DNA of 64,000 nt from a bacterium (GTDB lineage: Bacteria > Sysuimicrobiota > Sysuimicrobiia > Sysuimicrobiales > Kaftiobacteriaceae). The DNA lies in contig JBIOWP010000053.1 of NCBI GenBank assembly GCA_044868695.1, positions 1 through 64,000 of the forward strand, given 5' to 3'. The translations under genes and the position numbers were made by a program. Each line of letters starts with the position of its first letter. The stretch's first letter is position 1. Of the stretch, positions 15,620 to 57,612 are shown piece by piece. Below the pieces are notes generated by a model. The model was not told the origin of the DNA. It saw nothing but the letters and a program-made list of their open reading frames with translations, and did no database searches.

Positions 15620-15636
15620 CTACCGGTCGGGCCCGA

Positions 15637-16581
15637 TCATCGCAGGGCGATGACGAGATCCGCGGTCACACCCAGCAGCAGCGCGACGTTTTCTATCGCC
15701 ACAGGATTCTCCGGGACATAGAGCACGTCGCCGCGCTGCAACGAGACGTCGCGAGAGACATCACCCTCACGAACGACCTTCCAGAGATCGACCGGGATGA
15801 CTCTAATGGCGGCGCTCTCGCGGGCAACAACCACCGTGTTCAGCGAGACAGTAGACGTCGGGGGCTGCGTTCGTTCGCGCCTGATGATCGAGGACCGATT
15901 CAGCATGGCCCGCCGGGTTGGGCCCCCGGCCAGCGTCAGGGCCTGGAGCGCGGTGAGCGACCCGCGGACCGGCAACACTCCCGGCCGCTCCACCTGCCCC
16001 AGGACGTAGATGCGGGCCGTGGCATCTTCGGGAACCACGACGGAATCTCCCGACAACAGGGGCAGATTGAGCGAGAGGTCACCGCGCAAGAGGAGCCGTT
16101 CGAGGTCGATCAGCACCGGCGGAGCCTGCCCGCGCAACAGCCGGACTTCTCCGAGGCCGGCGTCGGGCGCCAGCCCCTCCGCGGCGGCGAGCGCGTCGAG
16201 GATCGTGGCGCCCGGTGCCAGCGCCACCACCCCGGGCCGCCGCACCTGTCCGAGCACGGACACCCGCACCCGGTGGAATGTGCGCACGATGACGGCGACT
16301 TGCGGCTCCCGGACGAATGTCGAAAACAGCTGAGTCAGCCGCTGGCGGAGCTGTTCTGGGGTCAAGCCGGCTGCCCGCACGTCCCCCACCAGGGGAAGGG
16401 AGATCACTCCGTCCGGCCGTATGATAACGATACGGGAAATCTCCGGATTGCGGAAGACAACGATCTCGATCTCATCTTCACTTGCCAGGACATACGGCTC
16501 CTGGGCGACGGCCGGGGCTAATGGGGGGGTCATGAACATTGAGACCAGGACCAGGAACGCCAGGGTTGATCGCCAGGGCAC
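15637..16581 (-). CDS. polysaccharide export protein (Poly_export + SLBB, Wza-like)
   Basis: IRPDGVISLPLVGDVRAAGLT, VSVLGQVRRPG, LQRGDVLYVP; GGAGGG RBS before GTG at 16581. Confidence 0.88.
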   Translation of the reverse strand: MPWRSTLAFLVLVSMFMTPPLAPAVAQEPYVLASEDEIEIVVFRNPEISRIVIIRPDGVISLPLVGDVRAAGLTPEQLRQRLTQLFSTFVREPQVAVIVRTFHRVRVSVLGQVRRPGVVALAPGATILDALAAAEGLAPDAGLGEVRLLRGQAPPVLIDLERLLLRGDLSLNLPLLSGDSVVVPEDATARIYVLGQVERPGVLPVRGSLTALQALTLAGGPTRRAMLNRSSIIRRERTQPPTSTVSLNTVVVARESAAIRVIPVDLWKVVREGDVSRDVSLQRGDVLYVPENPVAIENVALLLGVTADLVIALR

Positions 16582-16610: not shown

Positions 16611-16679
16611 AGGATAGGGACCATCCTCCCAGGGGAGGAATCAGGTAGAATCCGGATGCGTATCGGGGAAAATCCCCTA
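16611..16679 (-). promoter_or_regulatory. bipartite dyad promoter, site 1 (wza-wzi)
   Basis: Minus strand: TAGGGGATTTTCCCC-gatacgca-TCCGGATTCTACCTGATT-N22-TATCCT. Confidence 0.8.
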
Positions 16680-16718
16680 CGCCCCTACCAATCCTGGCTC
16701 CAAAGAGCCGCATGGATA

Positions 16719-16759
16719 TGGGGTATTTTCCGGTATCCGATTCAGGTCTTTACCTGATT
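16719..16759 (+). promoter_or_regulatory. bipartite dyad promoter, site 2 (rsbRST operon)
   Basis: TGGGGTATTTTCCGG-tatccgat-TCAGGTCTTTACCTGATT; -10 not clear. Confidence 0.75.
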
Positions 16760-16817
16760 CGGTTGGACACCGGTCGGTGAAATGTTATTGAAGAATCGCC
16801 GCCGAAGGAGGCCTGCC

Positions 16818-17735
16818 ATGCCTGATGCTGAAACGAGCGCGGTTGTGACCCCCGTGCCGCGAGATGAGTCCACGACGGCGCTGCTGCGAGAGCTCGTGGC
16901 GCACCTTCGCCAGAGCCGGACCCAGCCCCGTGAGGAGTGGGCCCGGCGCATTACTGAAGCGAAACTGCTGACCGCGATGAGCCCGGAAGAGGTGTTCGCC
17001 GAAGCCACGGCCGTGTACGACAACTACCTGGAAGCGCTGGAGACGGGGTCCATCGAGGCGCTGGAGACATACGCGAGAAACCTGTCGGAGCGGATCATCC
17101 CGCGGGGCGTCGAGACGCACGAGGTCGTGGGTATCGTCCTCCTGCTCCGCGACGTGCTGGCGCGGTCGCTGTTCGCGAAGTACCGCCGGGACTTTGACCA
17201 GTTGAACAGCATCCTCGACGCGTACGAGCCGGCGGCCAACCGGATCGCCATTACCGTGTCCGTCGGCTTTGTCCAAGAGCGCGAGCGCGTCATCCGCCAG
17301 CAGCAGGAAGCGATACGGGAACTGTCCACGCCGGTCCTGCCCGTGCGGGAACGCCTGCTGATCCTTCCAATTATTGGTATCATCGATCCACAGCGCGCGC
17401 GCCAGCTGACCGAACAGCTGCTGCGCGGCATTCGCGTGAACCGCGCGAAGGTCGTCGTGATGGACATCACGGGCGTCCCGGCGATGGATGCCACGGTCGC
17501 GAACCACCTGGTGCAGACGGTGGAAGCGGCACGGCTGCTGGGGGCCATCGTCATCGTGACGGGCCTCGCCCCGGAGATCGCGCAGACCCTCGTCAACATC
17601 GGCGTGGATCTCAGCAAGATCATCACCGTCGGCGACATGCAGGGCGGGATTGAGGAAGCCGAGCGGCTGTTGGGCTACAAGGTTATGCCGGTCGCCGTCC
17701 TTCCGGCCAACGAGGCTCCGGAGGCCACCAGCTAG
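16818..17735 (+). CDS. rsbR: stressosome scaffold RsbR (helical N-domain + STAS)
   Basis: QQEAIRELSTPVLPV...LPIIGIID, MDITGVPAMD; GAAGGAGG RBS. Confidence 0.9.
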   Translation: MPDAETSAVVTPVPRDESTTALLRELVAHLRQSRTQPREEWARRITEAKLLTAMSPEEVFAEATAVYDNYLEALETGSIEALETYARNLSERIIPRGVETHEVVGIVLLLRDVLARSLFAKYRRDFDQLNSILDAYEPAANRIAITVSVGFVQERERVIRQQQEAIRELSTPVLPVRERLLILPIIGIIDPQRARQLTEQLLRGIRVNRAKVVVMDITGVPAMDATVANHLVQTVEAARLLGAIVIVTGLAPEIAQTLVNIGVDLSKIITVGDMQGGIEEAERLLGYKVMPVAVLPANEAPEATS

Positions 17736-17749
17736 CGGAGGTTGTCCAA

Positions 17750-18136
17750 ATGCCCGTCCCCATCCTCAAACAGCGTGACTATCTCATCGCGAGCATCCAG
17801 GCCGCGCTCACCGATGAGGACCTCAAGCAGCTGCGCGACGCGCTCGTGGCGCAGGTCGGACAATTCCGCTCCCGCGGGGTCATCGTGGACGTGACCGCCC
17901 TCGACGTCATGGATTCCTTTGCCGTCCGGACGCTGCGCGACCTCGCGCACATGACGCGGCTGCGGGGGGCGGAAACGGTCATCGTGGGCATTCAGCCCGA
18001 GGTGGCCTTCGCGATGACGCAGTTAGGCCTGAAGCTTGAAGGGGTGGCCGCCGCCTTGGATCTGGAAGAGGGGCTGGCATATCTTGACCGTCGGGGCAAG
18101 CGAGCCGGAGTTCATGGGCCTCGGCCCATGAACTGA
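17750..18136 (+). CDS. rsbS: stressosome STAS protein RsbS
   Basis: MPVPILK, DVTALDVMDSF, VGIQPEVA, ALDLEEGL. Confidence 0.92.
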   Translation: MPVPILKQRDYLIASIQAALTDEDLKQLRDALVAQVGQFRSRGVIVDVTALDVMDSFAVRTLRDLAHMTRLRGAETVIVGIQPEVAFAMTQLGLKLEGVAAALDLEEGLAYLDRRGKRAGVHGPRPMN

Positions 18137-18141
18137 TCCCC

Positions 18142-18600
18142 GTGATCTTACGTCCCAGCGCGGATGGCGCGACACCCGTGACCGACGAAGGGCGCTCGGA
18201 CACCTGGCAGGTGGTCGTCCCGATCACATCGGATCTTGACATCGTGGCCGCCCGGCAGCGCGGGCGGGTGCTGGCGCTTGACCTCGGCTACTCCGCGACG
18301 GAAGCCACGCTGGTCGCCACCGCCATCTCGGAACTGGCCCGGAACATCGTGTTGTACGCCAAACGGGGTCAGATCGCCCTGACGAGCGCCAACGACGGCA
18401 GCCGGCGAGGGATCGTCATCGTCGCGCGCGACGACGGACCGGGGATCGCGGACGTGTCCCGGGTCACCGTGGGCGGGTACTCCACCTCGGGCGGTCTGGG
18501 CCTCGGATTGTCCGGCGTCCGGCGGTTGATGGACGAATTTGAGATTTCCAGCCAGGTGGGCAAGGGGACAACGGTGACGGTCAAGAGCTGGAAACGCTGA
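18142..18600 (+). CDS. rsbT: RsbT Ser/Thr switch kinase (start uncertain)
   Basis: ATAISELARNIVLYA, DDGPGI, GYSTSGGLGLGLSGVRRLMDEF. Confidence 0.92.
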   Translation: MILRPSADGATPVTDEGRSDTWQVVVPITSDLDIVAARQRGRVLALDLGYSATEATLVATAISELARNIVLYAKRGQIALTSANDGSRRGIVIVARDDGPGIADVSRVTVGGYSTSGGLGLGLSGVRRLMDEFEISSQVGKGTTVTVKSWKR

Positions 18601-18607
18601 GGGCGCC

Positions 18608-19204
18608 GTGATTGAGTGGGGCGCCGCGACGTTCACCCTCCGGGGGCAGGTCGAATCCGGCGACCGCCATGTGGTGGCGCCGTTCGGCCCCGGGGTCCTT
18701 GTGGCCGCCATCGACGGTCTGGGGCATGGCGATGGGGCGGCCGAGGCCGCTTCGCGTGCCGCGAACGTCCTGGAGGATGTGTCCGCCGAGTCGGTGATCG
18801 CCCTGGTCCGCCGCTGCCACGAGTCGCTGCGGCGGACGCGCGGAGTGGTGATGAGCCTCGCCTCGTTCCACGCGCCCGACGACACGATGACGTGGTTGGG
18901 CGTGGGCAACGTCGAGGGGCGACTGCTGCGCGCCGCCCGGGACTCGAATCCCCCACTTGAAACGCTCCTCCTCCGGGGCGGGGTGGTGGGGAACCAGCTC
19001 CCGCCGTTGCAGGCTGCCCTGCTGTCCGTCGCCCCGGGGGATGTGCTGGTGCTGGCGACGGACGGGGTCGCCCTGCCGCCGGTTCCCGAGGTCGGCCTCC
19101 ACGACCGCCCGCAATCGATCGCGGAGAGGATTCTCGGCCGGCAGAAGAAAGAAACCGATGACGCGCTGGTGCTGGTGGTGCGGTGGGTGGGTCTGCCACG
19201 ATGA
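18608..19204 (+). CDS. SpoIIE/PP2C phosphatase (RsbX-like)
   Basis: ESGD, IDGLGHG, GVGNVEG, LATDG, DDALVLV. Confidence 0.85.
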   Translation: MIEWGAATFTLRGQVESGDRHVVAPFGPGVLVAAIDGLGHGDGAAEAASRAANVLEDVSAESVIALVRRCHESLRRTRGVVMSLASFHAPDDTMTWLGVGNVEGRLLRAARDSNPPLETLLLRGGVVGNQLPPLQAALLSVAPGDVLVLATDGVALPPVPEVGLHDRPQSIAERILGRQKKETDDALVLVVRWVGLPR

Positions 19205-20526
19205 CAGATGCGACGACCGAGCAGCTGACCAAATACGCCGCCGCGCTGAAGGAGTACCTCCGGGGAGGCGGCGAGCCCGCGCTGCAGCGGGCGTATGAAC
19301 TCGGACGCGCCGCGCTCGCCGAGGGGGTCGGCGTGCTGGAGATGGCAGCGCTGCACCATCGGGCGATGGTGCAACTGCTGCGGTCTGAAGAGAGCCTGCC
19401 GGGGATGGTCGCGGCCGCGGGGCAGTTCTTGGTCGAGAGTCTGTCGCCATTTGAGATGACACACCGGGGATACCGTGAAGCCAACGCGTCGCTTGAGGCC
19501 AGCGAGAAGCAGTACCGCGAGCTGTTCGAAAACGCCAACGATGCGGTGTTCACGGCTGACCTCACCGGTCAGTTCACGTCCATCAACCGGGCGGGGGAGC
19601 AGCTGACGGGGTACGAGCGCGGTGAGGTCACGTCCATGAACTTCGCGAGCGTCGTCGTGCCCGAGCACGTGCCGATCGCCCAGCGCATGATGGAGCGGAA
19701 ACTGCGTGGCGAGGTGGAACGGACCCGCTACGAAATCGAAATCAAGACCCGCGACGGACGGAGAGTTCCCGTCGAGGTGCACACCGCGCTGCTCCGCCAT
19801 GACGGGCAGGCGGTGGGGATCCACGGCATTGCGCGCGATATCACGGAGCGCAAGCAGGCTGAAGAGACGCTGCGGTGGTTGAACGAGCGGTTGGAGGACG
19901 AGGCGAAGCGGATCGCGCACGCGCTGCACGATGAAGCCGGCCAGCTGCTCAGTTCCGTGCACCTCGCCCTGGAGGAGGTCGCGCGCGATCTTCCTCAGGG
20001 CGCGCGGGCGCGGATGCGGGCCGTGAAAGAGCTGCTCGACCAGATCGAAGAGGAGCTGCGGCGGCTGTCCCACGAGCTCCGGCCGACGGTGCTCGACGAC
20101 CTCGGGCTGCTGCCGGCCCTGGAATTCCTCGCCGATCGCGTCGGCAGGCGCAGCGGGCTCACGATTACGGTGCAGGACAAGACCGAGCGGCGCCTGCCGC
20201 CGTCTGTCGAGACGGCCCTCTACCGCAGCGTGCAGGAGGCGTTCAACAATATCATGCGGCACGCGAAGGCGGCGCGGGTGAAGGTAGAGATCCGGCAGGA
20301 GGCAGGGAGCGTGCTCTGCTCGGTGCGGGACGACGGCATTGGGTTCAACACCGCCGTGGTGAAGGTGCGCGAAGGCGAGCGCGGACTCGGTCTGATGGGC
20401 ATCCGGGAACGCGCCGGCGCCCTGGGCGGGACGCTTGAGATCCGGTCGGCGCCGGGGAAGGGCACCGAGCTGTCTATCTCGATTCCTCTGGAGAGTGGAG
20501 ATGTCGCTGCGGATTCTGCTGGCTGA
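19201..20526 (+). CDS. RsbU-N-like / PAS / HisKA_3 histidine kinase
   Basis: N-terminal helical YAAALKEYL...ALQRAYELGR...FLVESLSPF; PAS (YRELFENANDA...ARDITERK); IAHALHDEAGQ; DDGIGF. Confidence 0.88.
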   Translation: MTDATTEQLTKYAAALKEYLRGGGEPALQRAYELGRAALAEGVGVLEMAALHHRAMVQLLRSEESLPGMVAAAGQFLVESLSPFEMTHRGYREANASLEASEKQYRELFENANDAVFTADLTGQFTSINRAGEQLTGYERGEVTSMNFASVVVPEHVPIAQRMMERKLRGEVERTRYEIEIKTRDGRRVPVEVHTALLRHDGQAVGIHGIARDITERKQAEETLRWLNERLEDEAKRIAHALHDEAGQLLSSVHLALEEVARDLPQGARARMRAVKELLDQIEEELRRLSHELRPTVLDDLGLLPALEFLADRVGRRSGLTITVQDKTERRLPPSVETALYRSVQEAFNNIMRHAKAARVKVEIRQEAGSVLCSVRDDGIGFNTAVVKVREGERGLGLMGIRERAGALGGTLEIRSAPGKGTELSISIPLESGDVAADSAG

Positions 20527-21133
20527 TGATCACGGAATCTTCCGCCAGGGCGTCAAGGCGCTGCTGGAGCGTGAAGGATTCCGCGTGGACGGCGAGGCCG
20601 GGGACGGCCACGCCGCGATTCAGCTCGCCGAGCAGCTGACTCCCGACGTCGCGGTCCTCGACCTCACCATGCCGCTGTTGAACGGCCTCGACGCGGCCAG
20701 GGAAATTGCGCGCCTGTCCCCGCGGACGCGGACGATCCTGCTGACGATGCATACCGAGGATCCGTATGTCGCCAAGGCGCTCGCGGCCGGCATCCGCGGG
20801 TACGTGCTGAAGAGCCAGGCGGCGGAGGACCTGGTGCAGGCCATCCGGGAGGTGTCCAAAGGCGCCGTGTATCTGAGTCCCGGCGTCTCGGAGGCCGTCG
20901 TCGAAGCGTACCTGGCGAGACGCGAGCTGCCCCGCGATCCGCTGACCTCGCGCGAGCGCCAGGTCCTGCAGCTCATCGCCGAGGGCAAGACCACCAAGGA
21001 GGTGGCCGGCCTCCTGGGCGTGAGCGTGAAGACGGCGGAGTCCCACCGGATGAGGATCATGTCCAAGCTCGATATCCACGAGACCGCCGGGCTGGTCCGC
21101 TACGCCATCCGTCAGGGACTGCTGCCGCCCTGA
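20501..21133 (+). CDS. NarL family response regulator 1
   Basis: LADDH, VLDLTMP, LTSRERQVLQLIAEGKTTKEVA...KLDIHETAGLVRYAIRQG. Confidence 0.93.
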   Translation: MSLRILLADDHGIFRQGVKALLEREGFRVDGEAGDGHAAIQLAEQLTPDVAVLDLTMPLLNGLDAAREIARLSPRTRTILLTMHTEDPYVAKALAAGIRGYVLKSQAAEDLVQAIREVSKGAVYLSPGVSEAVVEAYLARRELPRDPLTSRERQVLQLIAEGKTTKEVAGLLGVSVKTAESHRMRIMSKLDIHETAGLVRYAIRQGLLPP

Positions 21134-21153
21134 CCCGCCCGCAGAAAAGCGAA

Positions 21154-21222
21154 TCAGGGTTTTCCCTATGCGAGATTCAGGCGTTTACCCGATTGGACCC
21201 CCCAGCTAGATCCTCGTAGCGT
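21154..21222 (+). promoter_or_regulatory. bipartite dyad promoter, site 3 (regulator 2)
   Basis: TCAGGGTTTTCCCTA-tgcgagat-TCAGGCGTTTACCCGATT-N22-TAGCGT. Confidence 0.8.
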
Positions 21223-21279
21223 TACGTATAAGACTGGCACGACATCTGTGTGGACGTTGCGAAGGAGTGACGCCGTCCC

Positions 21280-21912
21280 GTGCCACTAAGAGTGGTCATC
21301 GCCGACGACCATGCGATCGTCCGTCAAGGCGTCCGGGGCCTGCTGGAGCGCGAGGGCTTCGATGTCGTCGCGGAAGCGGGCGACGGCAAAGAGGCGGTCC
21401 GGCTGACGCAGGAGCTCGGTCCCGACGTGGCGGTCCTCGACTTCGTCATGCCGGTGCAGGACGGCCTCGACACGGCCCAGGAGATCTCGCAAGTGTCACC
21501 GGGGACCCGGGCGATCCTGCTGACGATGCATGCTGAGGAACCCTACGTCGTCAGAGCCCTGCAGGCGGGGATCAGGGGTTACGTCCTCAAATCACAGACC
21601 GCGGTTGAGCTGGTGGGCGCCATTACTGAAGTCATGCGGGGCGGGACCTACTTCAGCCCGGGCGTATCCGGCGCCATCGTCCAGGCGTATCAGGCCCGCA
21701 ATGAACCTCCCTCCGATCACCTGACCCCGCGGGAACGTCAGGTGCTCCAGCTGGTTGCCGAGGGCAAGACTACCAAAGAGGTGGCTCAACTGCTGGGCAT
21801 CAGCGCCAAGACGGCCGACTCCCACCGCAGCCGCATCATGTCCAAGCTGGACATTCATGAGACGGCCGGGCTGGTCCGCTACGCCATCCGCCAGGGGCTC
21901 ATCAGGCTGTAA
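21280..21912 (+). CDS. NarL family response regulator 2 (paralogue of regulator 1)
   Basis: IADDH, VLDFVMP, C-terminal HTH nearly identical to 20501-21133. Confidence 0.93.
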   Translation: MPLRVVIADDHAIVRQGVRGLLEREGFDVVAEAGDGKEAVRLTQELGPDVAVLDFVMPVQDGLDTAQEISQVSPGTRAILLTMHAEEPYVVRALQAGIRGYVLKSQTAVELVGAITEVMRGGTYFSPGVSGAIVQAYQARNEPPSDHLTPRERQVLQLVAEGKTTKEVAQLLGISAKTADSHRSRIMSKLDIHETAGLVRYAIRQGLIRL

Positions 21913-21978
21913 AGAGAATCACCGATCCTCCTTAAGGCGTCCTCCCGATTGAATCCCCGCCTACGCGACCGTTACCAT
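21910..21978 (+). promoter_or_regulatory. bipartite dyad promoter, site 4 (ANTAR gene)
   Basis: TAAAGAGAATCACCG-atcctcct-TAAGGCGTCCTCCCGATT-N22-TACCAT. Confidence 0.65.
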
Positions 21979-21989
21979 AGTCTAAACGT

Positions 21990-22655
21990 ATGCAAACTCT
22001 GCGCGTGCTCATTGCCGAAGATAAGCGTCTTGTCGCGACGCGTCTGAGCTCGCAGCTCGAGAGTCTCGGGCATGAGGTCGCGGGCGTCGTACAAGATGGC
22101 CGCGACTTAGTGGAGGCCGCCTGGCGCCTGCTGCCGGACGTGATTATCGTCGGACTGCCGCTGCCCGTGCTGGACGGGATCGAGGCGTCGCGCGCTATTC
22201 TCACCAGACATGCGATTCCCATTATCGTGCTTGCCGGGTACACCTCCGCAGGTCTTGTCCGGCGGGCCCAGGAAGCCGGTGTGCTCACGTTCCTCGCCTG
22301 GCCGACTGACACCAGCGCGCTGGGGTCCGCGATTTATGTCGCACTGACCCGCTTCCAGGAGCTGCAGGTACTGTCCGAGCAGTCGGGCGACCTCCGGCAG
22401 GCGTTGCGGGCGCGCGCGACGGTGGAGCGGGCAAGGAAGATGTTGATGCGGCGCCTTGACCTCACGGAGGCCGATGCCTTCAGGTACATGCGCCGCCAAA
22501 GTCAGACCTCGGGCCTGCCGGTCCGAGACCTGGCAGCGAATATGCTGATGGTGGGAGAGTTTCTGTTTGGGAAGCTCGACACGGTCCGCCGTCTCGGAAC
22601 GATCCTCGACGTGCTCAGGCAGCGCGAGGCAGTCGGTCCACAGCGGGTCGCTTGA
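21990..22655 (+). CDS. receiver-ANTAR protein (AmiR/NasT-like)
   Basis: RVLIAED receiver; VERARKMLMRRLDLTEADAFRYMRRQS ANTAR helix pattern. Confidence 0.85.
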   Translation: MQTLRVLIAEDKRLVATRLSSQLESLGHEVAGVVQDGRDLVEAAWRLLPDVIIVGLPLPVLDGIEASRAILTRHAIPIIVLAGYTSAGLVRRAQEAGVLTFLAWPTDTSALGSAIYVALTRFQELQVLSEQSGDLRQALRARATVERARKMLMRRLDLTEADAFRYMRRQSQTSGLPVRDLAANMLMVGEFLFGKLDTVRRLGTILDVLRQREAVGPQRVA

Positions 22656-22681
22656 AGGTTCCCCCATAGTCCTTCCGCGCT

Positions 22682-22749
22682 CCTGGGTTTTCCCACCCGC
22701 CGGGTAGGGAAGCACCTGATTGGTCACGTCGGAGTCCAGCCCCTAGTGT
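22682..22749 (+). promoter_or_regulatory. bipartite dyad promoter, site 5
   Basis: CCTGGGTTTTCCCAC-ccgccgg-GTAGGGAAGCACCTGATT-N22-TAGTGT. Confidence 0.72.
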
Positions 22750-22876
22750 GGGTTCGGAGAGCACCCTCATAAGCTGAGGCCGTTACGGGTGAGCCCAGCC
22801 GGGCGTGTGAGTATGTGCGCGTTAAGGGTAGGGGCCGATCTCTGCGCGTGACGTCAAGGGTTCTGAGAACGATGCG

Positions 22877-23176
22877 ATGGGCACGCTGGTTATTTCGTTT
22901 GTCTCTGCGGTCACCGGGGCAGGGTACTCCGAGGGCGACGATGCAAAGATCACGATCGTCGTCCCGCGGTCGCACGCCTATCTTGCTGACCTGCTCGCCA
23001 GGGCCTTCGAAGGACGTGAGGACATCGAGGTCGTCGTGGACCGGCGGCGCGGCGACCGGCGGGCCCAGCAGCGGCCTGTCTCCGTCGATCGCCGGCGGAA
23101 AGATCGGCGCCGGCGCAAAGAGGAAGTCGTTGAGGTCGTAGTCGGCCGGCCGGGATGGCTGTCTGATACTTCGTAA
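22877..23176 (+). CDS. small protein with tandem DRR motifs
   Basis: EVVVDRRRGDRR...VDRRRKDRRR; lies downstream of promoter site 5; start uncertain. Confidence 0.65.
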   Translation: MGTLVISFVSAVTGAGYSEGDDAKITIVVPRSHAYLADLLARAFEGREDIEVVVDRRRGDRRAQQRPVSVDRRRKDRRRRKEEVVEVVVGRPGWLSDTS

Positions 23177-23231
23177 GGAGCGGAGCCGCCATCTGAACGC
23201 CTATGACGCGGTCAGAACCGCGCGTGGGTGG

Positions 23232-23299
23232 TAGGGGAACTTCCCGCCGGTGAGTCGGAGATTTACCTGATTGGCCGCGTCCGGGGAACACGCTACACC
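23232..23299 (+). promoter_or_regulatory. bipartite dyad promoter, site 6
   Basis: TAGGGGAACTTCCCG-ccggtgag-TCGGAGATTTACCTGATT-N21-TACACC. Confidence 0.75.
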
Positions 23300-23336
23300 C
23301 AAACCGGGTAGACGTCTGCATCGGTGGAGGAATGGC

Positions 23337-25295
23337 ATGCGACCGGCGATCCTGCGGAGTGCGGTGTGCGTCCTTTTCGTGAGCCTCCTGGCGGGTGGCC
23401 CGCCGGCCTCGGCGTGGGACGGAGTGTCTCATGCCGTCGTCAAGGTGTGGAATACCGCCGTTCCTATTCCCCCCTCCTTGAGCCTCGGGCTGACGCCGGG
23501 CGAGTCCGTCGAGGATCCCGCCGGCCTCACAGACCATGGCACAAGTTTCCCCACGATCGTGACCGTGTATGCCCGCAGCAGCCATCCGGGGGGTCTGTCG
23601 GGAGTGTCGTATTGGAATCCCGAGGGGAATGTCTTCGCGTGGTATGGGAAGACGTTTGGAGGGCTGCCCGCGGCGCAAATGCCACCGCCGCCGCCCAGCA
23701 GCGGGTTCCCAGGCGGGGTCGATATCAACCGGGGCGGCGGACCGGTCCTGGCAGGCGGACCATTCGGAACATCGTTTGGACCGGGTGATGTCTGGATCGG
23801 CGGAGCGCAGAATGAGCCGCTGATCGTGCAGATGGCCGGCTCGGACCCGCTGACCGGCGCCGGCAGGTTCCGATCCTACGGGACCAACAACCCGCTGCTG
23901 CCGCCGTCCGGCCAGGCCTTTGGGGTTCAGGTCGACGAAGCCACCGGGCACGTCTTCGTCGCCCAGACCTTCGAACGCCGGATCAGCCGGGTGAATCCTC
24001 CGACGGCGATCGTCACCATGTGGGACATGGGGACCTGCAACGGGTCGACGTGCGGCAGCCCCGTCTATGTGACGGTCGACACGTCGGGGCGCCCCTACGC
24101 GACGACGGTCGGATCGACGTTTGGGGACGGCGTCGTTCGCGTGAACCGCGGCGCAGACGGCGTGCTGGGGCTCAACCCCCTCACCGGCGTCTCTGACGAC
24201 ACCATCAGCCTGTGGGCGCTCCCCAGCCAGCCTGCATACCGCATCCCGCCGCTGTTCCTGACGAATCCGGAGGAGAACCCGAACGGGCTCATTACCGCGG
24301 ATGCGGATGGCAATGTGTGGATCTCCGAAAGCGGTGCCCACAAGGTGGCACGGCTGAACCCTGCCACGAACCAGATCTGCGAATACACCACGTCTGGAAT
24401 GCGCAACCCGCAGCAGATCACGACGACGGGGTCCGGCAGCTCGCTGCAGGTGTTCTTCACGGAGGGGGAGGGCAACTCGGTCAGTGTGCTCACGCAGGGC
24501 GAAGCCGACCTGGCGCCGTTCCCCGACCGGGCGTGCGTCAGTGTCACGCCCCTCACCTTTCCGACGCGTGTGGTCGACGTGACGACGCAGACCTTTGACG
24601 AACTGGTGCTGCCTCTGCGGACGGCGATCGTGCCGACGGTCCATCACGTGGCCTCGGTCGGCGGATCGGGCATCGCGCGGTTCTCGCCTATGCCGAACCC
24701 GCTGCTGTCCGTTGACGGGGACCCGATCGGGGATGCGGGCAACGGTTTCCCGTCGGGGATGACCGGTGTGTACGGGGTGAATCGGGTCGCGGGCGCGTAC
24801 CTCGATCTGCAGAATGGCAACAAGCACTTTCAGGTGGAAAGCCGCCTCATCACCGCCCCGCCGCCATCCCCGCCCGGCGGGCTGCCCGGCCGCATGACCG
24901 GTGGCGGGAGGCTCGCCACCGCGGACGGGACGAAGGTGACATACGGGCTCGTGCTGCGGTGCGCGGCGGATCAACAGGGCAAAGACGCGCTGCAGGTGAA
25001 CTGGAGCGAGGGCAACAGGTTCCATCTCACGCGGGTCAACGCGGCCTCGTGCAGTGACGATCCGTCCATCAGCCCCGATCCTCCCCCTGCGTCGTTCGAC
25101 ACTCACTCGGGCCGCGGGACAGGCCGCTACAATGGCGTAGACGGCGCCACGGCGGAGTGGACGTTCACCGACGCCGGAGAACCGGGGAACGACGATACCG
25201 TCCGGCTCGTCATCCGGAACGCCTCGGGCACGGTTGTGCTCGTGGTCTCGGGCCGGCTCACGAGAGGGAACAATCAGGCGCACGACGCCAGGTAG
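23337..25295 (+). CDS. secreted beta-propeller (Vgb/NHL-like) protein with a C-terminal post-COAP-like domain
   Basis: GGAGG RBS, signal peptide; PNGLITADADGNVWISESGAHKVARLNP; Pro linker; GRMTGGG...DAGEPG.DD...GNNQAH. Confidence 0.75.
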   Translation: MRPAILRSAVCVLFVSLLAGGPPASAWDGVSHAVVKVWNTAVPIPPSLSLGLTPGESVEDPAGLTDHGTSFPTIVTVYARSSHPGGLSGVSYWNPEGNVFAWYGKTFGGLPAAQMPPPPPSSGFPGGVDINRGGGPVLAGGPFGTSFGPGDVWIGGAQNEPLIVQMAGSDPLTGAGRFRSYGTNNPLLPPSGQAFGVQVDEATGHVFVAQTFERRISRVNPPTAIVTMWDMGTCNGSTCGSPVYVTVDTSGRPYATTVGSTFGDGVVRVNRGADGVLGLNPLTGVSDDTISLWALPSQPAYRIPPLFLTNPEENPNGLITADADGNVWISESGAHKVARLNPATNQICEYTTSGMRNPQQITTTGSGSSLQVFFTEGEGNSVSVLTQGEADLAPFPDRACVSVTPLTFPTRVVDVTTQTFDELVLPLRTAIVPTVHHVASVGGSGIARFSPMPNPLLSVDGDPIGDAGNGFPSGMTGVYGVNRVAGAYLDLQNGNKHFQVESRLITAPPPSPPGGLPGRMTGGGRLATADGTKVTYGLVLRCAADQQGKDALQVNWSEGNRFHLTRVNAASCSDDPSISPDPPPASFDTHSGRGTGRYNGVDGATAEWTFTDAGEPGNDDTVRLVIRNASGTVVLVVSGRLTRGNNQAHDAR

Positions 25296-25310
25296 CGGCA
25301 TGCGGCAATC

Positions 25311-25348
25311 CCGCAGGCGCCGGAGAGTGGGCGCCTGCGGTCTTTTTC
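25311..25348 (+). terminator. intrinsic terminator
   Basis: CCGCAGGCGCC-N8-GGCGCCTGCGG followed by TCTTTTTC. Confidence 0.8.
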
Positions 25349-25350
25349 TC

Positions 25351-25454
25351 TAGGGACATTCCCCGATGGCGTTTGATGACTTCTCCCTCGAACGTTCTCC
25401 AGCCGGTTTTCCAGGCTTCGCCTGATTGGTCTTCACGCTACGGTTAGGCACAGT
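25351..25454 (+). promoter_or_regulatory. dyad promoter, site 7 (variant spacing)
   Basis: Box A-like TAGGGACATTCCCCG at 25351-25365; box B TCCAGGCTTCGCCTGATT at 25410-25427; CACAGT 21 nt later. Confidence 0.6.
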
Positions 25455-25601
25455 GAGTGATGGAATGCGCAAGCGATCCGGACCCCCGAGGGGCCGGGAA
25501 GGAGGGATTGCGTCAACCAGTCACCGTAGGTCTCCGGTCCTTTGCATCGGGAGGTCGGACCGGCGCAGGGTCGTGTCGCACATGTCGAGAGGAGGAACGC
25601 A

Positions 25602-26246
25602 ATGAGCACGATGAGAGTCATGCACAGCCACGGCGCGCGCTGGGGTGTCGGTGCGCTGACCGTGGTCTTGACAATCTTCCTGGCGGTGCCCGCTCCTGTG
25701 AGCGCGCAGCTGCCGCTCCCACTGCCGGGAAGCGGAGGGGGGTCAGGGCCTCAGGCGACCGTAGTGCAGGCCGCCGTGTTCGGATCGACCGCCACGCTGG
25801 CCGATACCGGGACCCTCACGAGCGCCAGTGATCCTCTGGAAGCGTCGCTGGATGCAGGCAGCGCATTGGGAGTCGTGAACGGGGAAGTCCTGCACGCCGT
25901 CACGATCGGCTGGTCCGATCAGGTCGTCTCTGAAGCTTCGCTCGGGAACCTCACCATCGCGGGAGGCGGGCTTAGCATCATTGCGGACTTCGTGATGGCC
26001 CGGGCGCAGTCTGTCTCGGGATCCGGGAGCAGCGGTGGCTCCCTCATCGAGAACCTGTCGATCAACGGGGCGCCAGTCCAGCTCACCGGAGTGAATCAGA
26101 CGATCGCCCTGCTGGGGGGCCTCACCCTGGTCATCAACGAGGTGCAACAGTCGGGGAGCTCGGTCACGGCCAACGCCCTGCACCTCACGTCGCTGGATGG
26201 TCTCGTCGACATCGTGGTCGCGTCGGCGAGGGCGGGTGGGTTCTGA
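25602..26246 (+). CDS. secreted choice-of-anchor P-like protein
   Basis: Signal peptide; LSINGAPV....NQTIALLGGLTLVINE....VTANALHL...DIVVASARAG. Confidence 0.7.
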   Translation: MSTMRVMHSHGARWGVGALTVVLTIFLAVPAPVSAQLPLPLPGSGGGSGPQATVVQAAVFGSTATLADTGTLTSASDPLEASLDAGSALGVVNGEVLHAVTIGWSDQVVSEASLGNLTIAGGGLSIIADFVMARAQSVSGSGSSGGSLIENLSINGAPVQLTGVNQTIALLGGLTLVINEVQQSGSSVTANALHLTSLDGLVDIVVASARAGGF

Positions 26247-26269
26247 TGAGAGGACAGGAGGAGTGGACG

Positions 26270-26857
26270 ATGCGTAAGGTCATCTCATCTCTACTGGTGC
26301 TCGTCGCCGTTGTGGCGATGCAGGTGGTAGTTCCGACCCCCGCGCCTGCCCACGTGATCCCCAAACCATGTGATTTCACGACCGGCGGCGGATTTGTTTT
26401 CAACCCCTTCCCCAATGGAGCGAGGATCAACTTCGGCCTCGTCGGGGGGTGTAAGCACGGCTCGTTCTTCGGCCATGTGAACATCGTTGATCGGAGTTTC
26501 CCCCTTGGCCAGCTGCACGTGAGCAGCACGAGCATTGACGCGTACTTCGATCCGATAATTTCAGGATCGGGGTACCGTGATATCTGTGGCACGGCCAGGA
26601 CGAATCTCGTCGGCGATGTGAAGTTTCGCGTGCGAACGAAGGACAACGGAGAACCCGGAGGCGATGACCGCTTTGGGTTCAAACTGGCCAAGAATGGCGC
26701 AACGTACACTGTCAGCGTTCGGGAGCTGGGTCCCCCCGGCCGGACGGGCGGCGGTGGCAACATCCAGCTGCACAAGCCCAACCCGTCGACCACGGGACCG
26801 GACTTTGTAGACGAGATCGTTGCGTGCGGTGCGGATGACTCTGGATTGGGATTCTGA
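26270..26857 (+). CDS. secreted post-COAP-like domain protein
   Basis: Signal peptide; CDFTTGGGF..NFGLVGG..DNGEPGGDDRFG..GGGNIQLH. Confidence 0.7.
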   Translation: MRKVISSLLVLVAVVAMQVVVPTPAPAHVIPKPCDFTTGGGFVFNPFPNGARINFGLVGGCKHGSFFGHVNIVDRSFPLGQLHVSSTSIDAYFDPIISGSGYRDICGTARTNLVGDVKFRVRTKDNGEPGGDDRFGFKLAKNGATYTVSVRELGPPGRTGGGGNIQLHKPNPSTTGPDFVDEIVACGADDSGLGF

Positions 26858-26897
26858 CCGACTCGAGTCCCAAGGTTGTCGTCGCTCAACTATCGGT

Positions 26898-26939
26898 CCC
26901 CGGGGGGCCCGCATGGCGAGCCTCCCGGGGCAGTTTCTT
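26898..26939 (+). terminator. probable intrinsic terminator
   Basis: CCCCGGGGGGCCCGC-atg-GCGAGCCTCCCGGGG then CAGTTTCTT. Confidence 0.5.
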
Positions 26940-26963
26940 GGGTGGTTCAAATTCCAGCCGAGT

Positions 26964-27032
26964 TCAGGGGTTTTCCTCGCTGCACGTCCGGCGTCCACCT
27001 GATACCGGCGGAGGAGGGGAGCCGCCTATTCT
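26964..27032 (+). promoter_or_regulatory. bipartite dyad promoter, site 8
   Basis: TCAGGGGTTTTCCTC-gctgcacg-TCCGGCGTCCACCTGATA-N22-TATTCT. Confidence 0.75.
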
Positions 27033-27077
27033 CGGGCTAACGCGAAGGCGCTCCCCGAAGAGAGGGATGGCTGAACG

Positions 27078-28019
27078 ATGACGAGGCATAGCGGTCGACC
27101 GTGGAAACGATTTGGGCTACTCCTGATCAGCATGTTTCAAATCATCCCCGTGCTGCCGGGGCTCAACGTCGGCGCGACGAACGTCGCCTTCGCGCCCGGG
27201 GACGTGGTTCTCTCGTTCGAGAACGGGTCTGTACAGTGGCGGGCTCCCGATGGGGCCCTCAAGGGAGTGCTCGCCGGCACGGTGCCAGGCCCTGCAGAAG
27301 GCATGCGGTTCGATGCGGCCGGCAACCTGTACGTGACGCGCTGGTGCGCGCATCCCTGCTGGACCTCCGACACCGTTGAGAAGTTCAATACCAGTGGCGT
27401 CTGGCAAGGGACGTTCGGCAGCGGGTACAACTGCCGGCCCCACGCGCTCGCCTTCGACGCCGCCGGCAACGCGTACGTCGGCCAGGCCGACTGCACCGGT
27501 GACGTCTTGATGTTTTCGAGGGAGGGAAACCTTCAGGCCACTTATGCGGTCGCTCCCGAGAACAACGGCTCGTTCTGGGTCGACCTCGCCCCCGACGGCT
27601 GTACGCTCTTCTACACGTCGTGGGGTCCCAACGTAAAGCGGTTCAACGTGTGCACGAACAGGCAGCTTGCCGACTTCAACCGCGTCCCGCTGCCCGGCGG
27701 TGAGACCCATGGACTCCGCGTCCTGCCTGGTGGCGGCGTGTTGGTCAGCAGCGGCGCCGTGATCGCGCGCCTTGATGCCTCCGGGGTTCTCGTCCAGACC
27801 TACAGTGTGCCGACGGGTGAGCCCCAGTACTGGGCCGGGCTTGACCTGGTGGGTGACGGCACGTTTTGGGCCGCCAACTATTACGCGTCCATCTTCTTCA
27901 ACAACGCCAATGTGTACAGGTTTGACCTGACCACCGGAGCGATTCGGGGAAGCTTCAACACCGGGACCCCGGACCGTGATGTCGTCGATGTCCGCGTGAG
28001 CCGCGGGACGGGTCCGTAG
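27078..28019 (+). CDS. secreted beta-propeller protein (NHL/SMP-30-like)
   Basis: Signal-like N-terminus; repeated FDAAGNLYV / LAFDAAGNAYV blades. Confidence 0.75.
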   Translation: MTRHSGRPWKRFGLLLISMFQIIPVLPGLNVGATNVAFAPGDVVLSFENGSVQWRAPDGALKGVLAGTVPGPAEGMRFDAAGNLYVTRWCAHPCWTSDTVEKFNTSGVWQGTFGSGYNCRPHALAFDAAGNAYVGQADCTGDVLMFSREGNLQATYAVAPENNGSFWVDLAPDGCTLFYTSWGPNVKRFNVCTNRQLADFNRVPLPGGETHGLRVLPGGGVLVSSGAVIARLDASGVLVQTYSVPTGEPQYWAGLDLVGDGTFWAANYYASIFFNNANVYRFDLTTGAIRGSFNTGTPDRDVVDVRVSRGTGP

Positions 28020-28042
28020 GACCTATCACAGGGAGGCTGTTC

Positions 28043-28174
28043 ATGGGAAGTGTCCGGGCGTCGGTTCTGCTTGTCATTGCCGGCACGGTGTCTCTGGTGC
28101 TCGCACTGGGCCTGCGCCGCGGGTCCGGGAGCGGGTACCACCACCCTCCCGATGCGCTAGCCGTCTGGGGCTGA
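28043..28174 (+). CDS. 43-aa single-pass membrane peptide (below the ORF-track cutoff)
   Basis: GGGAGG RBS 6 nt before ATG; MGSVRASVLLVIAGTVSLVLALGLRRGSGSGYHHPPDALAVWG. Confidence 0.55.
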   Translation: MGSVRASVLLVIAGTVSLVLALGLRRGSGSGYHHPPDALAVWG

Positions 28175-28198
28175 TTACGGGGTTCACGCATGGCAACG

Positions 28199-28267
28199 TT
28201 GGGGTTTTTCCCCAATGGGCTTCCGGACTTCACCCTATTCCTGACCATGATGGATGGCTCTTATCTT
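28199..28267 (+). promoter_or_regulatory. bipartite dyad promoter, site 9 (EPS operon)
   Basis: TTGGGGTTTTTCCCC-aatgggct-TCCGGACTTCACCCTATT-N22-TATCTT. Confidence 0.78.
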
Positions 28268-28501: not shown

Positions 28502-29119
28502 ATGACGCACATGGGTAGGCTTGGGTCACCAACTCAAACCGAAGGGGGCGAAGCCTTGCCGCGCGTCGGGATGCTCGCCACGGCGGACGTCGACACGCCG
28601 CGCGTCCCCACGGTAGGGGCGCCGCCCTGGTACGCATTGTGGACGCGCAGCCACTGCGAGCGGCTGGTCTTCGACCATCTCGTCGCCAAGGGGTTCGACG
28701 CGTTCCTGCCGGTGGTCGACATCTGGTCGGTTCGCGCCGGCGTCCGCCGCCGCATCCAGATGCCCATGTTTCCCGGCTACCTCTTTCTCCGCCACGCGAT
28801 GGACAAGTACAGCTACATCGAGGTCCGGAAAGCCCGTGGCCTCGTGACTGTGCTGGGGGAGAGCTGGGATCGCCTCGCCCCGGTGCCCGACGATGAGGTC
28901 GAGGCGATTCAGGCCGTCGTGCGCTCACAGATGCCCGTGCTGCCCTACGCGTATCTGCGCGACGGACAGCGGGTCCGTATTGTCCGCGGGCCGCTCGCCG
29001 ATGTTGAGGGGTTCCTCGTGCGGCAGAAGCCGAACGCAGGACTCCTCGTCCTCTCCGTCCAGTTGCTCCAGCGAAGCGTCGCCGTCGAGGTGGACTGCAC
29101 ATGGGTAGTCCCGGCGTAG
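28502..29119 (+). CDS. NusG paralogue antiterminator (RfaH/UpxY-like); start uncertain
   Basis: WYALWTRSHCE, PMFPGYLF, GQRVRIVRGPLADVEG (KOW). Confidence 0.9.
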   Translation: MTHMGRLGSPTQTEGGEALPRVGMLATADVDTPRVPTVGAPPWYALWTRSHCERLVFDHLVAKGFDAFLPVVDIWSVRAGVRRRIQMPMFPGYLFLRHAMDKYSYIEVRKARGLVTVLGESWDRLAPVPDDEVEAIQAVVRSQMPVLPYAYLRDGQRVRIVRGPLADVEGFLVRQKPNAGLLVLSVQLLQRSVAVEVDCTWVVPA

Positions 29120-30648
29120 CGGCGAGACCAGGCGCGGGGCTGGAGGCGGCGCTGACGGTGTGGCATCGGCGTAAGTGGGTGGCGGTCGCCATCGTCCTGG
29201 TTCTGCTTGCGGCGACCATCGGGGTGTCGCTGACCCTCCCCGACGTCTACCAGTCGACGGTCACCGTGCTCGTCGACCGGCAACAGGCGGCCGGGGATTT
29301 CGCCGCGCAGGCGGCGGCGTCCACAGAACTCGAGACGAGGCTCCGGGCCATCATGCAGCGGATCCTGAGCCGCTCGTCCCTCTACGACCTCGCGATCCGG
29401 TTCGACCTCTATCCCCAGCTGCGTTCGAGGGCGACCGAGGAGGACATCGTGGCGCGGATGCGCCGCGACGTCCGTGTGGAGTTTCAGGAAGTCCGGGACA
29501 TGCTGGCCTGGCGGACGACGACGATCGCGCTCAACGTCAGTTACGTCGGGCGCGATCCCGAGATGGTCGCACGTGTCACCAACGCCCTGGCCGCCCTCTA
29601 CGTCGAGGAAAACGTCCGGCTCCGAGAGCAGCAGACGGCCGGCACCACGGAATTCCTGCGGGCGCAGCTCGAGGATGCTAGGCGGCAGTTGGAGGAACAG
29701 GACCGGCAGATCAGCGTCTTCAAGGAGCGCCACATCGGCGAGCTCCCGGAACAGCAGATGACCAACCTGGCCGCGCTGGAGCGGCTGAGCGCGAAGCTCC
29801 GCGTGATCGGCGATCTGGAACTCCGGGCGATGGCGCGGCGCGACGAGCTGGTGAAGCAGCTGGCCGAGTCCCCCGGTACCCCGGGCGGACTCGCCAAACT
29901 CAGGCAGGAACTCGCCAACCTGCGCACGCGCCTCACCGACGAGCATCCCGACGTTATGGCCCTCAAAGCGGAGATCGCCGCCGCCGAGCGCCAGCTTGCG
30001 GCCGAACGCATCGGGCGCACGGTCCGGGCGGGGTCACCAGAGGAGCCGTCGCTCCGCGATGCGCTCGCGGAAGTCGAAGCGCAGCTGACGGCGCTCCGCA
30101 ACGAGGAGCGGGCGCTGCGGAGTACGGTGGCGACATACGAGCAGCGGGTGGCCAATGCTCCACGGCAGGTGCAGGAGTTCGACCAGCTGTCTCGGGACTA
30201 TGCCGGGCTTCAGGAGCGGTACCGGCAGCTGCGCGAGCGGTATGAGGACGCGCAGGTCGCGGAACAGATCGCGCAGCGCCCGCAAGGTGAGTTCCGCATC
30301 CTCGATGCCGCCGTCCCGCCTCAGAAGCCGGTCGCGCCCAACCGCATCGCGCTCCTCTTTGTCGGTCTGGTCGTTTCGTTCGGAGCCGCGGTCGGGGCGG
30401 TGCTGCTCGCCGAGGGACGCGATACCTCGTTCCACACCGTCGACGACGTGCGCGCGTTCACCGGCGTCCCGGTTCTGGTCAGCATTCCGCCGATCATCAC
30501 CGGAGGAGATACCCGGGCACGCCGGCTCCGCGCGGGCCTGGCCGTCTTCGCCACGGCGCTCGGGGCCGCCGCGGTCGGCGGTGCCTCGGCCTACCTCGCT
30601 CGCTCGAGCGAGACGCTGGTCCGCCTCCTGACCCCGGGGCGTTTCTGA
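29101..30648 (+). CDS. polysaccharide co-polymerase / chain-length determinant (Wzc/GumC-like)
   Basis: Two TM ends around a coiled coil; LPDVYQS, TDEHPDV, FRILDAAVPP.KPVAPNR. Confidence 0.9.
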   Translation: MGSPGVAARPGAGLEAALTVWHRRKWVAVAIVLVLLAATIGVSLTLPDVYQSTVTVLVDRQQAAGDFAAQAAASTELETRLRAIMQRILSRSSLYDLAIRFDLYPQLRSRATEEDIVARMRRDVRVEFQEVRDMLAWRTTTIALNVSYVGRDPEMVARVTNALAALYVEENVRLREQQTAGTTEFLRAQLEDARRQLEEQDRQISVFKERHIGELPEQQMTNLAALERLSAKLRVIGDLELRAMARRDELVKQLAESPGTPGGLAKLRQELANLRTRLTDEHPDVMALKAEIAAAERQLAAERIGRTVRAGSPEEPSLRDALAEVEAQLTALRNEERALRSTVATYEQRVANAPRQVQEFDQLSRDYAGLQERYRQLRERYEDAQVAEQIAQRPQGEFRILDAAVPPQKPVAPNRIALLFVGLVVSFGAAVGAVLLAEGRDTSFHTVDDVRAFTGVPVLVSIPPIITGGDTRARRLRAGLAVFATALGAAAVGGASAYLARSSETLVRLLTPGRF

Positions 30649-30652
30649 TCTG

Positions 30653-31447: not shown

Positions 31448-31472
31448 GTCGATCGCAGGGAAGAGGGATAAG

Positions 31473-32150: not shown

Positions 32151-32159
32151 CAGACGCGT

Positions 32160-32783: not shown

Positions 32784-32793
32784 GCCGGATCGC

Positions 32794-34152: not shown

Positions 34153-34175
34153 GAGGCGCGGAACGGAGGAGATCG

Positions 34176-37299: not shown

Positions 37300-37558
37300 C
37301 GTCGCCGCGGTCGAAGCACGCATCACGCAGATCTTTGCGCGGGCGCTCCATCTGGAGATTCCCGCAGCCGATCTGGATCTGTTCGAGACGGGAGCGATCG
37401 ACTCGCTCGCGTTTGTGGAGTTCCTCCTGCATCTGGAGCGTGAGTTTGGGATCAAGGTCTCGCTGGAGGATCTGGAACTCGACAGCTTCAGGACGATTCA
37501 GCGGATCGCCCAGTATGTGACCGCGCGGAACGGGACGACACCTACCGCATCCCGGTGA
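37292..37558 (+). CDS. carrier protein 1 (DltC-like)
   Basis: DLDLFETGAIDSL phosphopantetheine motif, LEREFGI. Confidence 0.88.
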   Translation: MADVAAVEARITQIFARALHLEIPAADLDLFETGAIDSLAFVEFLLHLEREFGIKVSLEDLELDSFRTIQRIAQYVTARNGTTPTASR

Positions 37559-37562
37559 CGCG

Positions 37563-40675: not shown

Positions 40676-40676
40676 C

Positions 40677-42452: not shown

Positions 42453-42466
42453 GGGGTGATACCGTC

Positions 42467-47192: not shown

Positions 47193-47197
47193 TCACC

Positions 47198-53108: not shown

Positions 53109-53110
53109 CG

Positions 53111-55774: not shown

Positions 55775-55812
55775 CCTCTCCGCCGCGAGCAGGATCGCCG
55801 CACGGGAACCCC

Positions 55813-57603: not shown

Positions 57604-57612
57604 GGATCTGCC

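Follow-up and report, generated by a model that had tools for sequence, protein, structure and literature searches.

Predicted SsrB/EsrB-type tandem operators at a stressosome-kinase-regulator locus of an uncultured soil bacterium

Two lines of published work bear on the locus considered below. The first concerns regulators of the LuxR and NarL type. SsrB recognizes an 18-bp palindrome of the form 7-4-7 (PMC2837388), and the EsrB box has been published as ATCAGGTgattACCCGAT (review PMC6592360); the base-reading residues of RcsB are K180 and S184 (PMC5829831); NarL activates from -43.5 at yeaR and from -44.5 plus -77.5 at ogt (PMC10853779); and the operator of NreC in Staphylococcus is described only as a ‘GC rich palindromic region’ (PMC8139620). 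The second concerns stressosomes, most of which are found in bacteria without a SigB cascade, with little known of their function in Gram-negative organisms (PMC9237108). In Bacillus, freed RsbT binds RsbU_N and activates the enzyme fused to it (PMC12143880); kinases bearing RsbU_N have already been noted in stressosome operons (PMC9237108, PMC12143880). The two lines meet in the first 64,000 nucleotides of contig JBIOWP010000053.1 (assembly GCA_044868695.1; Sysuimicrobiota, Kaftiobacteriaceae), the whole of which is called the window here. It carries stressosome genes rsbR, rsbS, rsbT and rsbX, an RsbU_N histidine kinase, two NarL-family response regulators (RR1 and RR2), genes for capsule or exopolysaccharide (EPS) export and synthesis, and nine copies of a promoter motif.

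The motif is genuine, marks a regulon and belongs to a known class of operator; the circuit in which it stands is new. With a probability of about 0.74, all nine sites are palindromes of the SsrB/EsrB 7-4-7 type, most of them in tandem at a spacing of about 23 bp, that would serve as activator operators of RR1 and probably also of RR2, with RR1 phosphorylated by the adjacent RsbU_N kinase once the stressosome releases RsbT.

The box and its promoters

A sequence-only reading of the window had described each site as a pair of boxes, A and B, followed at six sites by a TAnnnT hexamer. All nine sites were verified by position and strand: the distance from the start of box A to the end of box B is 40 bp at seven of them and 39 bp at 22682, and box B at 25410 has a displaced upstream box at 25351, 59 bp away. 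Both boxes are present, but they are not distinct motifs; they are two copies of one 7-4-7 palindrome, the register of which begins one base before box B as first drawn. Box A is best taken as a degenerate second copy, centred 22.5–23.5 bp upstream at six sites and 59 bp upstream at one. The candidate of two unrelated motifs was rejected; box A is mostly a weaker version of the box B palindrome.

The published EsrB consensus, which was not trained on sequence from the window, provides an outside standard. Box B of the window sites matches it at 9–13 of 14 arm bases, box A at just 7–10; five sites with at least 11/14 matches lie in 1,853 bp of intergenic DNA, where 0.17 would be expected. The 45 de-duplicated sites collected from other genomes yield the consensus TCAGGTRTTYACCYGAT, and 39 of the 45 match the EsrB box at 10 or more of the 14 positions. 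Box B has the 18-bp 7-4-7 form of SsrB/EsrB-type operators and matches their published consensus. On the protein side, EsrB (7vim, E 6e-17) is the top natural match in the PDB to the DNA-binding domain of RR1, with SsrB (2jpc) third; the recognition helix reads KTVETHR in EsrB and SsrB and KTAESHR in RR1, and RR1 has the helix form KT-x-E-[ST]-HR expected of a cognate regulator. By an alignment made by eye, RR1 and RR2 both have K and S at the helix positions equivalent to K180 and S184 of RcsB. The 7-2-7 box of E. coli NarL was rejected as the identity of the motif, the consensus here being 7-4-7 with different arms.

Statistical support was sought across the genome (2.59 Mb), sites of the locus being scored leave-one-out against the remainder. 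Unseeded Gibbs sampling of the eight intergenic regions, the motif-discovery check that had been suggested, found box B again in 8/8, with a log-likelihood of 122 against 96±2 in 10 dinucleotide shuffles; the 41-bp composite reached 220 against 154±3. In the scan of the 2.6 Mb, six of seven composite sites have only 0–2 equal or better sites outside the locus; the composite at 21910 has 20 of equal score. A degenerate form of the composite pattern matches the window 8 times where 0.47 are expected, and seven of these matches fall on named sites (covering six of the nine), with one in coding DNA. When a matrix was built from 41 sites outside the lineage, 8 of the 9 window boxes came within the top 28 of 75 matches; with a -10 filter added, five of the top six are in the locus, and the sixth, at contig position 73032 (-), is a probable tenth site. 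Two boxes are weak: box A at 21910, which overlaps the RR2 stop codon, scores 10.9 bits leave-one-out and is not conserved in either of the relatives G013 and G007, and box B at 22704 scores 6.0 bits, with 1243 genome sites equally good. A repeat or transposon origin of the boxes was rejected because spacers and flanks are unrelated (26–37% identity). Rfam has no match in the window at gathering threshold.

Around the probable tenth site, which lies beyond the window (G000:C53:72946-73032, or about 10950-11030 of L212), the minus-strand site has TACGTT at +22 and is accompanied by two further boxes; it precedes the gene of a 1049-aa predicted secreted protein (69622-72771), the leader of which contains a c-di-GMP-I-GGC riboswitch (RF03167). 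Further tandem boxes away from the locus were seen in the same genome at G000:C13:14511, C160:5291 and C80:558; that on C160 precedes two predicted secreted proteins, and those on C13 and C80 lie near other LuxR-type regulators.

The promoter geometry is regular. As had been claimed, a TAnnnT hexamer starts exactly 22 nt after box B at six of the nine sites, and no pile-up of six sites at any single offset occurred in 20,000 shuffles. The 22-nt spacing holds in the window; it is not fixed across genomes, where it varies from 20 to 22 nt, TAnnnT being found in that range at 21 of the 45 outside sites as against 1.7 in shuffled sequence. The final T of box B is likely part of a weak -35 element (TTG at five of nine sites). 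With this terminal TT(G) taken as the start of the -35, the spacer is 16–18 bp; the palindrome would then be centred between -42.5 and -44.5, with box A near -67. Transcription would start near 16604 (-), 21229, 21985, 22756, 27039 and 28274. The suggestion that these are NarL/LuxR-family operators beside the -35 region is supported, and the geometry points to activation. No consensus sigma-70 promoter was found in the region (1.4 expected), as would be the case for activator-dependent promoters. The rsbR site lacks TAnnnT at 20–22 nt here; its orthologues in G013 and G007 have it. Predicted transcripts differ in their leaders: 228 nt (28274-28501) before the UpxY/RfaH-like gene that heads the EPS cluster, 5 nt for the nearly leaderless REC-ANTAR transcript.

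Table 1. Genes and predicted operators of the locus, in window coordinates
Feature	Position	Strand	Basis or detail
wza (Poly_export/SLBB; likely GTG start 16581) and wzi, capsule/EPS export	14093..16581	-	Pfam; start by ribosome-binding site
wza-wzi promoter, tandem operator	16639..16679	-	box A 16679-16663, box B 16656-16639; -10 TATCCT 16616-16611
Tandem operator upstream of rsbR, predicted autoregulatory for rsbRSTX, kinase and RR1	16719..16759	+	top EsrB-box match, 13/14
Stressosome genes rsbR, rsbS, rsbT, rsbX	16818..19204	+	Pfam; PDB matches to RsbR/RsbS
Histidine kinase RsbU_N-PAS-HisKA_3-HATPase_c	19201..20526	+	Pfam
RR1, REC-GerE (NarL family), helix SVKTAESHR	20501..21133	+	Pfam, helix, PDB comparison
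Tandem operator upstream of RR2	21154..21194	+	-10 TAGCGT 21217-21222
RR2, paralog of RR1 (145/210 aa identical), helix SAKTADSHR, own operator	21280..21912	+	Pfam
Operator upstream of REC-ANTAR gene	21910..21950	+	box B 21933-21950 conserved, box A doubtful; -10 TACCAT 21973-21978
REC-ANTAR protein	21990..22655	+	Pfam; receiver without phospho-acceptor Asp (VIIVGL)
Weakest site, upstream of 99-aa open reading frame	22682..22721	+	-10 TAGTGT 22744-22749
99-aa open reading frame, Arg/Asp-rich tail	22877-23176	+	Atlas neighbours are small proteins in unnamed clusters
Tandem operator upstream of secreted protein 23337-25295	23232..23272	+	-10-like TACACC 23294-23299
Four predicted secreted proteins	23337..28019	+	NCBIfam; signal peptides by eye
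Box B 25410-25427 and second palindrome 25351-25366	25351..25427	+	directly after terminator 25311-25350
Tandem operator upstream of secreted protein 27078-28019	26964..27004	+	-10 TATTCT 27027-27032
EPS operon promoter, tandem operator	28199..28239	+	-10 TATCTT 28262-28267
EPS cluster: UpxY/RfaH-like NusG paralog first, XrtA-type chain-length determinant, Wze, sugar transferase	28502..64000	+	

Genes of the locus and their distribution

The order rsbR, rsbS (STAS), rsbT (HATPase), rsbX (PP2C) is that of a stressosome. The gene directly after rsbX starts with RsbU_N (PF08673, 43.7 bits against a cut-off of 25.5, E 3e-11), and 755 proteins match the N-terminal 110 aa of the kinase; since it bears this domain the kinase is likely the output of the stressosome, a point the sequence-only reading had overlooked. 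A SigB partner switch of the Bacillus type is not seen here: kinase and regulators follow rsbX in place of an RsbU phosphatase, RsbV and RsbW, the rest of the genome not having been searched for RsbV or RsbW. The four secreted proteins comprise one with a post-COAP-1-like domain (below cut-off), one of choice-of-anchor P, one of post-COAP-1, and one without a family over cut-off; the 99-aa open reading frame has no Pfam or NCBIfam family. The EPS cluster extends for 41 kb on a single strand, to about position 69,546 of the contig. Its first gene (28502-29119) is the UpxY/RfaH-like antiterminator; the metagenome loci L148 and L165 have such a gene too, with wza and wzc/wze divergent from rsbR. 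The chain-length determinant (29101-30648) passes TIGR03007, a model of the XrtA (PEP-CTERM) system, and the promoters of the locus look NarL-controlled, not sigma-54-controlled. Two additional sigma genes were seen: one adjoining the locus (12537-13421, minus strand), RpoD/RpoS-like without region 1.1, and a short SigB/F-like one within the EPS cluster (32160-32783, plus strand).

The closest named relatives are ANGP1 and ‘Armatimonadetes’ metagenome-assembled genomes, names that correspond to CSP1-3/Ca. Sysuimicrobiota, and a full-length orthologous kinase is present in 3 of 40 relatives. The proposed look upstream of orthologous genes finds the sites again: they recur before rsbR, RR2, the ANTAR gene and the EPS operon in G013, G007 and L030/L111, and the wza site is kept in G013, G007 and L111 with its -10 at +22. 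In 14 pairs of orthologous sites, identity is 78% for box B and 54% for box A, as against 26–37% for spacers and flanks. In another relative (L204, G005:C317), multiple tandem boxes lie divergent from a choice-of-anchor-P-like gene. L024, L025 and L027 (in G015, G011 and G005) present a different picture: the RsbR N-terminal domain is apparently fused ahead of a HisKA_3 kinase, an RR1-like regulator follows, and there are no rsbS, rsbT or rsbX matches and no strong operator nearby.

Nitrospirota, Acidobacteriota, Binatia and Steroidobacteraceae carry the rsbRSTX-kinase-regulator cassette as well, and the identity of RsbR there is about 80%. In 36 cassette-flanking regions from those lineages the window matrices are significant in 19 (box B) or 23 (composite). 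The helix of the first regulator, compared over 36 cassette loci, is conserved as S[AV]KT[AV][ED][ST]HR, two loci deviating. Blind Gibbs sampling of 16 loci outside the lineage, run without a shuffle control, recovered this palindrome in front of rsbR in 11, mostly related Gammaproteobacteria. One metagenome locus that groups with Nitrospirales RsbR (L183) carries six tandem sites, again with a period of 23 bp. A comparison of stressosome outputs over 102 loci (80 metagenome, 22 genome) serves as a natural control: the box is significant upstream of rsbR at 23 of 28 loci with a HisKA_3-kinase output and at 3 of 22 with another output. The other outputs sampled were sigma-54 activators in 7 of 10 cases. 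It is the tandem, T-rich-centred form of the box that characterizes the stressosome cassette.

One clade (L116, L122, L130, L133, L158, L170 and L185) has near-identical rsbRSTX followed by a sigma-54 activator gene; these activators give no RsbU_N match, and several of the loci have Wze-like or sugar-transferase-like genes nearby. This clade is another stressosome output type.

Which regulator reads the boxes

The sequence-only reading assigned the boxes to both NarL regulators acting together. An operator of that regulator family is supported; the second regulator is not required. Of 28 cassette loci with 1.5 kb or more of sequence downstream, only 3 have a second LuxR gene, scored within 2.5 kb, and 9 of the 25 loci without one have tandem sites nonetheless; the RR1 orthologue alone is therefore the likely core binder, and RR2 is likely a duplicate induced by RR1. 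The suggested autoregulation is borne out to the extent that a predicted operator precedes rsbR, at the same position in 23 of 28 cassette loci.

In the mechanism proposed, stress would lead the stressosome to free RsbT, which would bind the RsbU_N domain of the kinase, and RsbX would reset the system; these steps are modelled on Bacillus RsbT-RsbU and on Moorella. The activated kinase would phosphorylate RR1. From the geometry, a regulator dimer bound to box B, which is centred at about -44.5 and whose last base adjoins the weak -35, would recruit RNA polymerase of the sigma-70 type; cooperativity would come from another dimer, bound to box A at about -67.5. The operator upstream of rsbR would give positive feedback on its own operon. 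The regulon induced would comprise RR2, the ANTAR protein, the four secreted proteins, wza/wzi and the 41-kb EPS cluster led by its antiterminator, so that stress would turn on the production of matrix or capsule with no SigB partner switch involved. A wider proposal, for which the odds are about even, is that this is a cross-phylum ‘stressosome-to-matrix’ circuit, likely moved horizontally: rsbRSTX, RsbU_N kinase and a NarL regulator that activates its own operon through an SsrB/EsrB-type tandem box, with EPS and secreted proteins of the matrix as its targets in soil lineages not yet cultured (this one, Nitrospirota, Acidobacteriota, Steroidobacteraceae).

Several points weigh against this assignment or limit its reach. 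The outside-site consensus is not fully independent, as the 45 sites were chosen with the window position weight matrix (PWM), and the single-box PWM is barely enriched genome-wide (75 matches, 53–61 in shuffles). The fixed -10 spacing has no counterpart in SsrB, whose sites do not keep a strict distance from the transcription start (PMC2837388). The kinase N-terminus matches solved RsbU_N structures weakly (E 0.93). Only 64 of the 102 loci had rsbR, rsbX and enough upstream DNA, and 14 of the 64 were unclassable; on the RsbR tree there are three label changes, and 18 of 21 B rows of the output contrast form one clade, so that just a few independent contrasts stand behind 23/28 and 3/22 and the nominal P value is too favourable. 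The strict pattern gave 0–1 matches, chance level, in each of five other-phylum genomes, and regulons there could thus not be mapped. Finally, related boxes occur elsewhere. On contig C105 of the same genome, 11 sites with at least 12/14 EsrB matches lie near a NarL paralog with the helix SIKTVQTHR; and order-level relatives that lack a close RR1 orthologue have strict single-box matches too (9 in G028, 6 in G040, 4 in G023; 0 in the reversed control). The C105 boxes and those in relatives lacking RR1 indicate that the box class belongs to a wider regulator subfamily. The suggestion of a local regulon is supported all the same, with the amendment that the motif class is not unique to the locus.

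The C105 cluster (G000:C105:40000-95700) accompanies genes that look, by eye, like those of cytochrome c oxidase, universal stress proteins, aconitase and acyl-CoA synthetase, and ends at the NarL paralog and a HisKA_3 kinase (94279-95725). It is probably a second regulon, possibly under oxygen or redox control.

Four other explanations have been weighed. The one that survives best, although unlikely, is a division of labour in which RR1 and RR2 read one box each, or form an obligate heterodimer like RcsA/RcsB. The locus does have two regulators, boxes A and B are not alike in average sequence, the centre of the box is rich in T in a directional way (TT in 44 of 54), and L183 combines its many tandem sites with a second, receiver-less LuxR gene behind an operator. 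Against it stand the scarcity of second LuxR genes within 2.5 kb of the cassette (a partner may be encoded elsewhere in those genomes), the tandem sites at loci without one, and the almost identical helices of RR1 and RR2.

It is quite unlikely that the C105 regulator, or that on C13, both with helices of the form SIKT[IV]QTHR, reads the sites while the stressosome regulators are incidental or a matter of cross-talk. Related boxes do cluster by these paralogs, and also in relatives without RR1. However, the C105 boxes have GC-rich centres and separate from the window set 19/19 leave-one-out, both sets being pre-selected, which leans the figure in favour of separation; all 45 outside cassette sites fit the window matrix better (45/45, again with pre-selected sets); and the motif accompanies the cassette into other phyla.

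That the boxes are repressor operators, or elements read by an alternative sigma factor, is very unlikely. The two extra sigma genes flank the locus, and the box B centre is directional and touches the -35 position; but sigma region 4 reads DNA downstream of an 18-bp tandem dyad centred at -44.5 and -67.5, the boxes match a known response-regulator box, and weak -35 elements suit activation. The polymerase acting at these promoters may nevertheless carry an alternative sigma.

ANTAR proteins recognize RNA with two paired stems, each capped by a hexaloop with G1 and G4. The idea that the tandem dyads are twin RNA hairpins of this kind, bound by the local ANTAR protein, is extremely unlikely and was rejected: an ANTAR gene is present and a 5-bp arm with a 6-nt centre resembles the hairpin, but 1 of 54 boxes (0 antisense) has both G1 and G4, all five arm positions pair in only 14 of 54 (non-pairing A-C and C-T being common), the boxes sit upstream of the predicted -10, no ANTAR match turned up in the other-phylum loci scanned, and twin G1/G4 hairpins are absent from eight leader or intergenic stretches, with at most one candidate in each. 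The preferred reading remains that of SsrB/EsrB-type activator operators bound by RR1.

Comparison with known systems

Stressosomes of the RsbRSTX type with non-sigma outputs (RsbU_N histidine kinases, Moorella MtG, Vibrio VvD1/D2) have the arrangement seen here, rsbR-S-T-X and then an RsbU_N fusion. The accessible parts of PMC9237108 and PMC12143880 give no response-regulator operator or regulon for them, whereas both can be predicted in the window, together with autoregulation and an EPS target. Nothing on this operator stands in the accessible parts of PMC8115616, PMC8139620 and PMC9023278, and no description of this operator or regulon was found in the literature searched, from which subscription journals are largely missing and supplements absent.

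The Rcs phosphorelay likewise runs from stress through a LuxR-type regulator (RcsB, with RcsA) to capsule genes, with a similar half-site and similar helix residues. It differs in its input, RcsCDF rather than a stressosome, and RR2 is a full response regulator; the RcsB model scores 78 against a cut-off of 235. Rcs is a functional analogue only. E. coli NarL at yeaR and ogt (PMC10853779) offers the same placing of a dimer beside the -35, at -43.5 or -44.5, with an optional upstream site; its site is a 7-2-7 of other sequence, and the upstream one lies at -77.5, not near -67.5 as in the window.

What the locus adds is a stressosome output legible in the DNA itself, with a specific operator, predicted promoters and a list of targets. 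The operator can serve as a search motif for mapping regulons in other uncultured soil bacteria, and its match to the EsrB/SsrB box provides, across phyla, a link between the DNA motif and the recognition helix KT-x-[EDQ]-[ST]-HR. If the wider proposal is true, no direct regulon of a stressosome lacking SigB would have been defined before this one, and the operator code of the virulence regulators SsrB and EsrB would be an old and widespread code of soil bacteria.

The closest known systems on the DNA side are SsrB (Salmonella SPI-2) and EsrB (Edwardsiella), which share with the window the 18-bp 7-4-7 palindrome and a near-identical helix; SsrB also has tandem copies before ssrAB (PMC2837388). 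The differences are equally plain. The host is a soil bacterium; the predicted targets are genes for EPS and secreted proteins rather than for type III secretion, of which the Pfam scan found no gene among the 31 proteins scanned; the kinase is a cytoplasmic HisKA_3 enzyme with RsbU_N; and the fixed -10 spacing and regular 23-bp tandem of the window contrast with the looser spacing of SsrB. Nor is orthology with the SsrA-SsrB or EsrA-EsrB pairs supported: the best NCBIfam match of the SsrB type, NF011896, which we take to be the SsrB model, scores 162 against a cut-off of 242. The kinase wiring, then, is already in print; its predicted operator and regulon appear, as far as the literature found extends, to be new.

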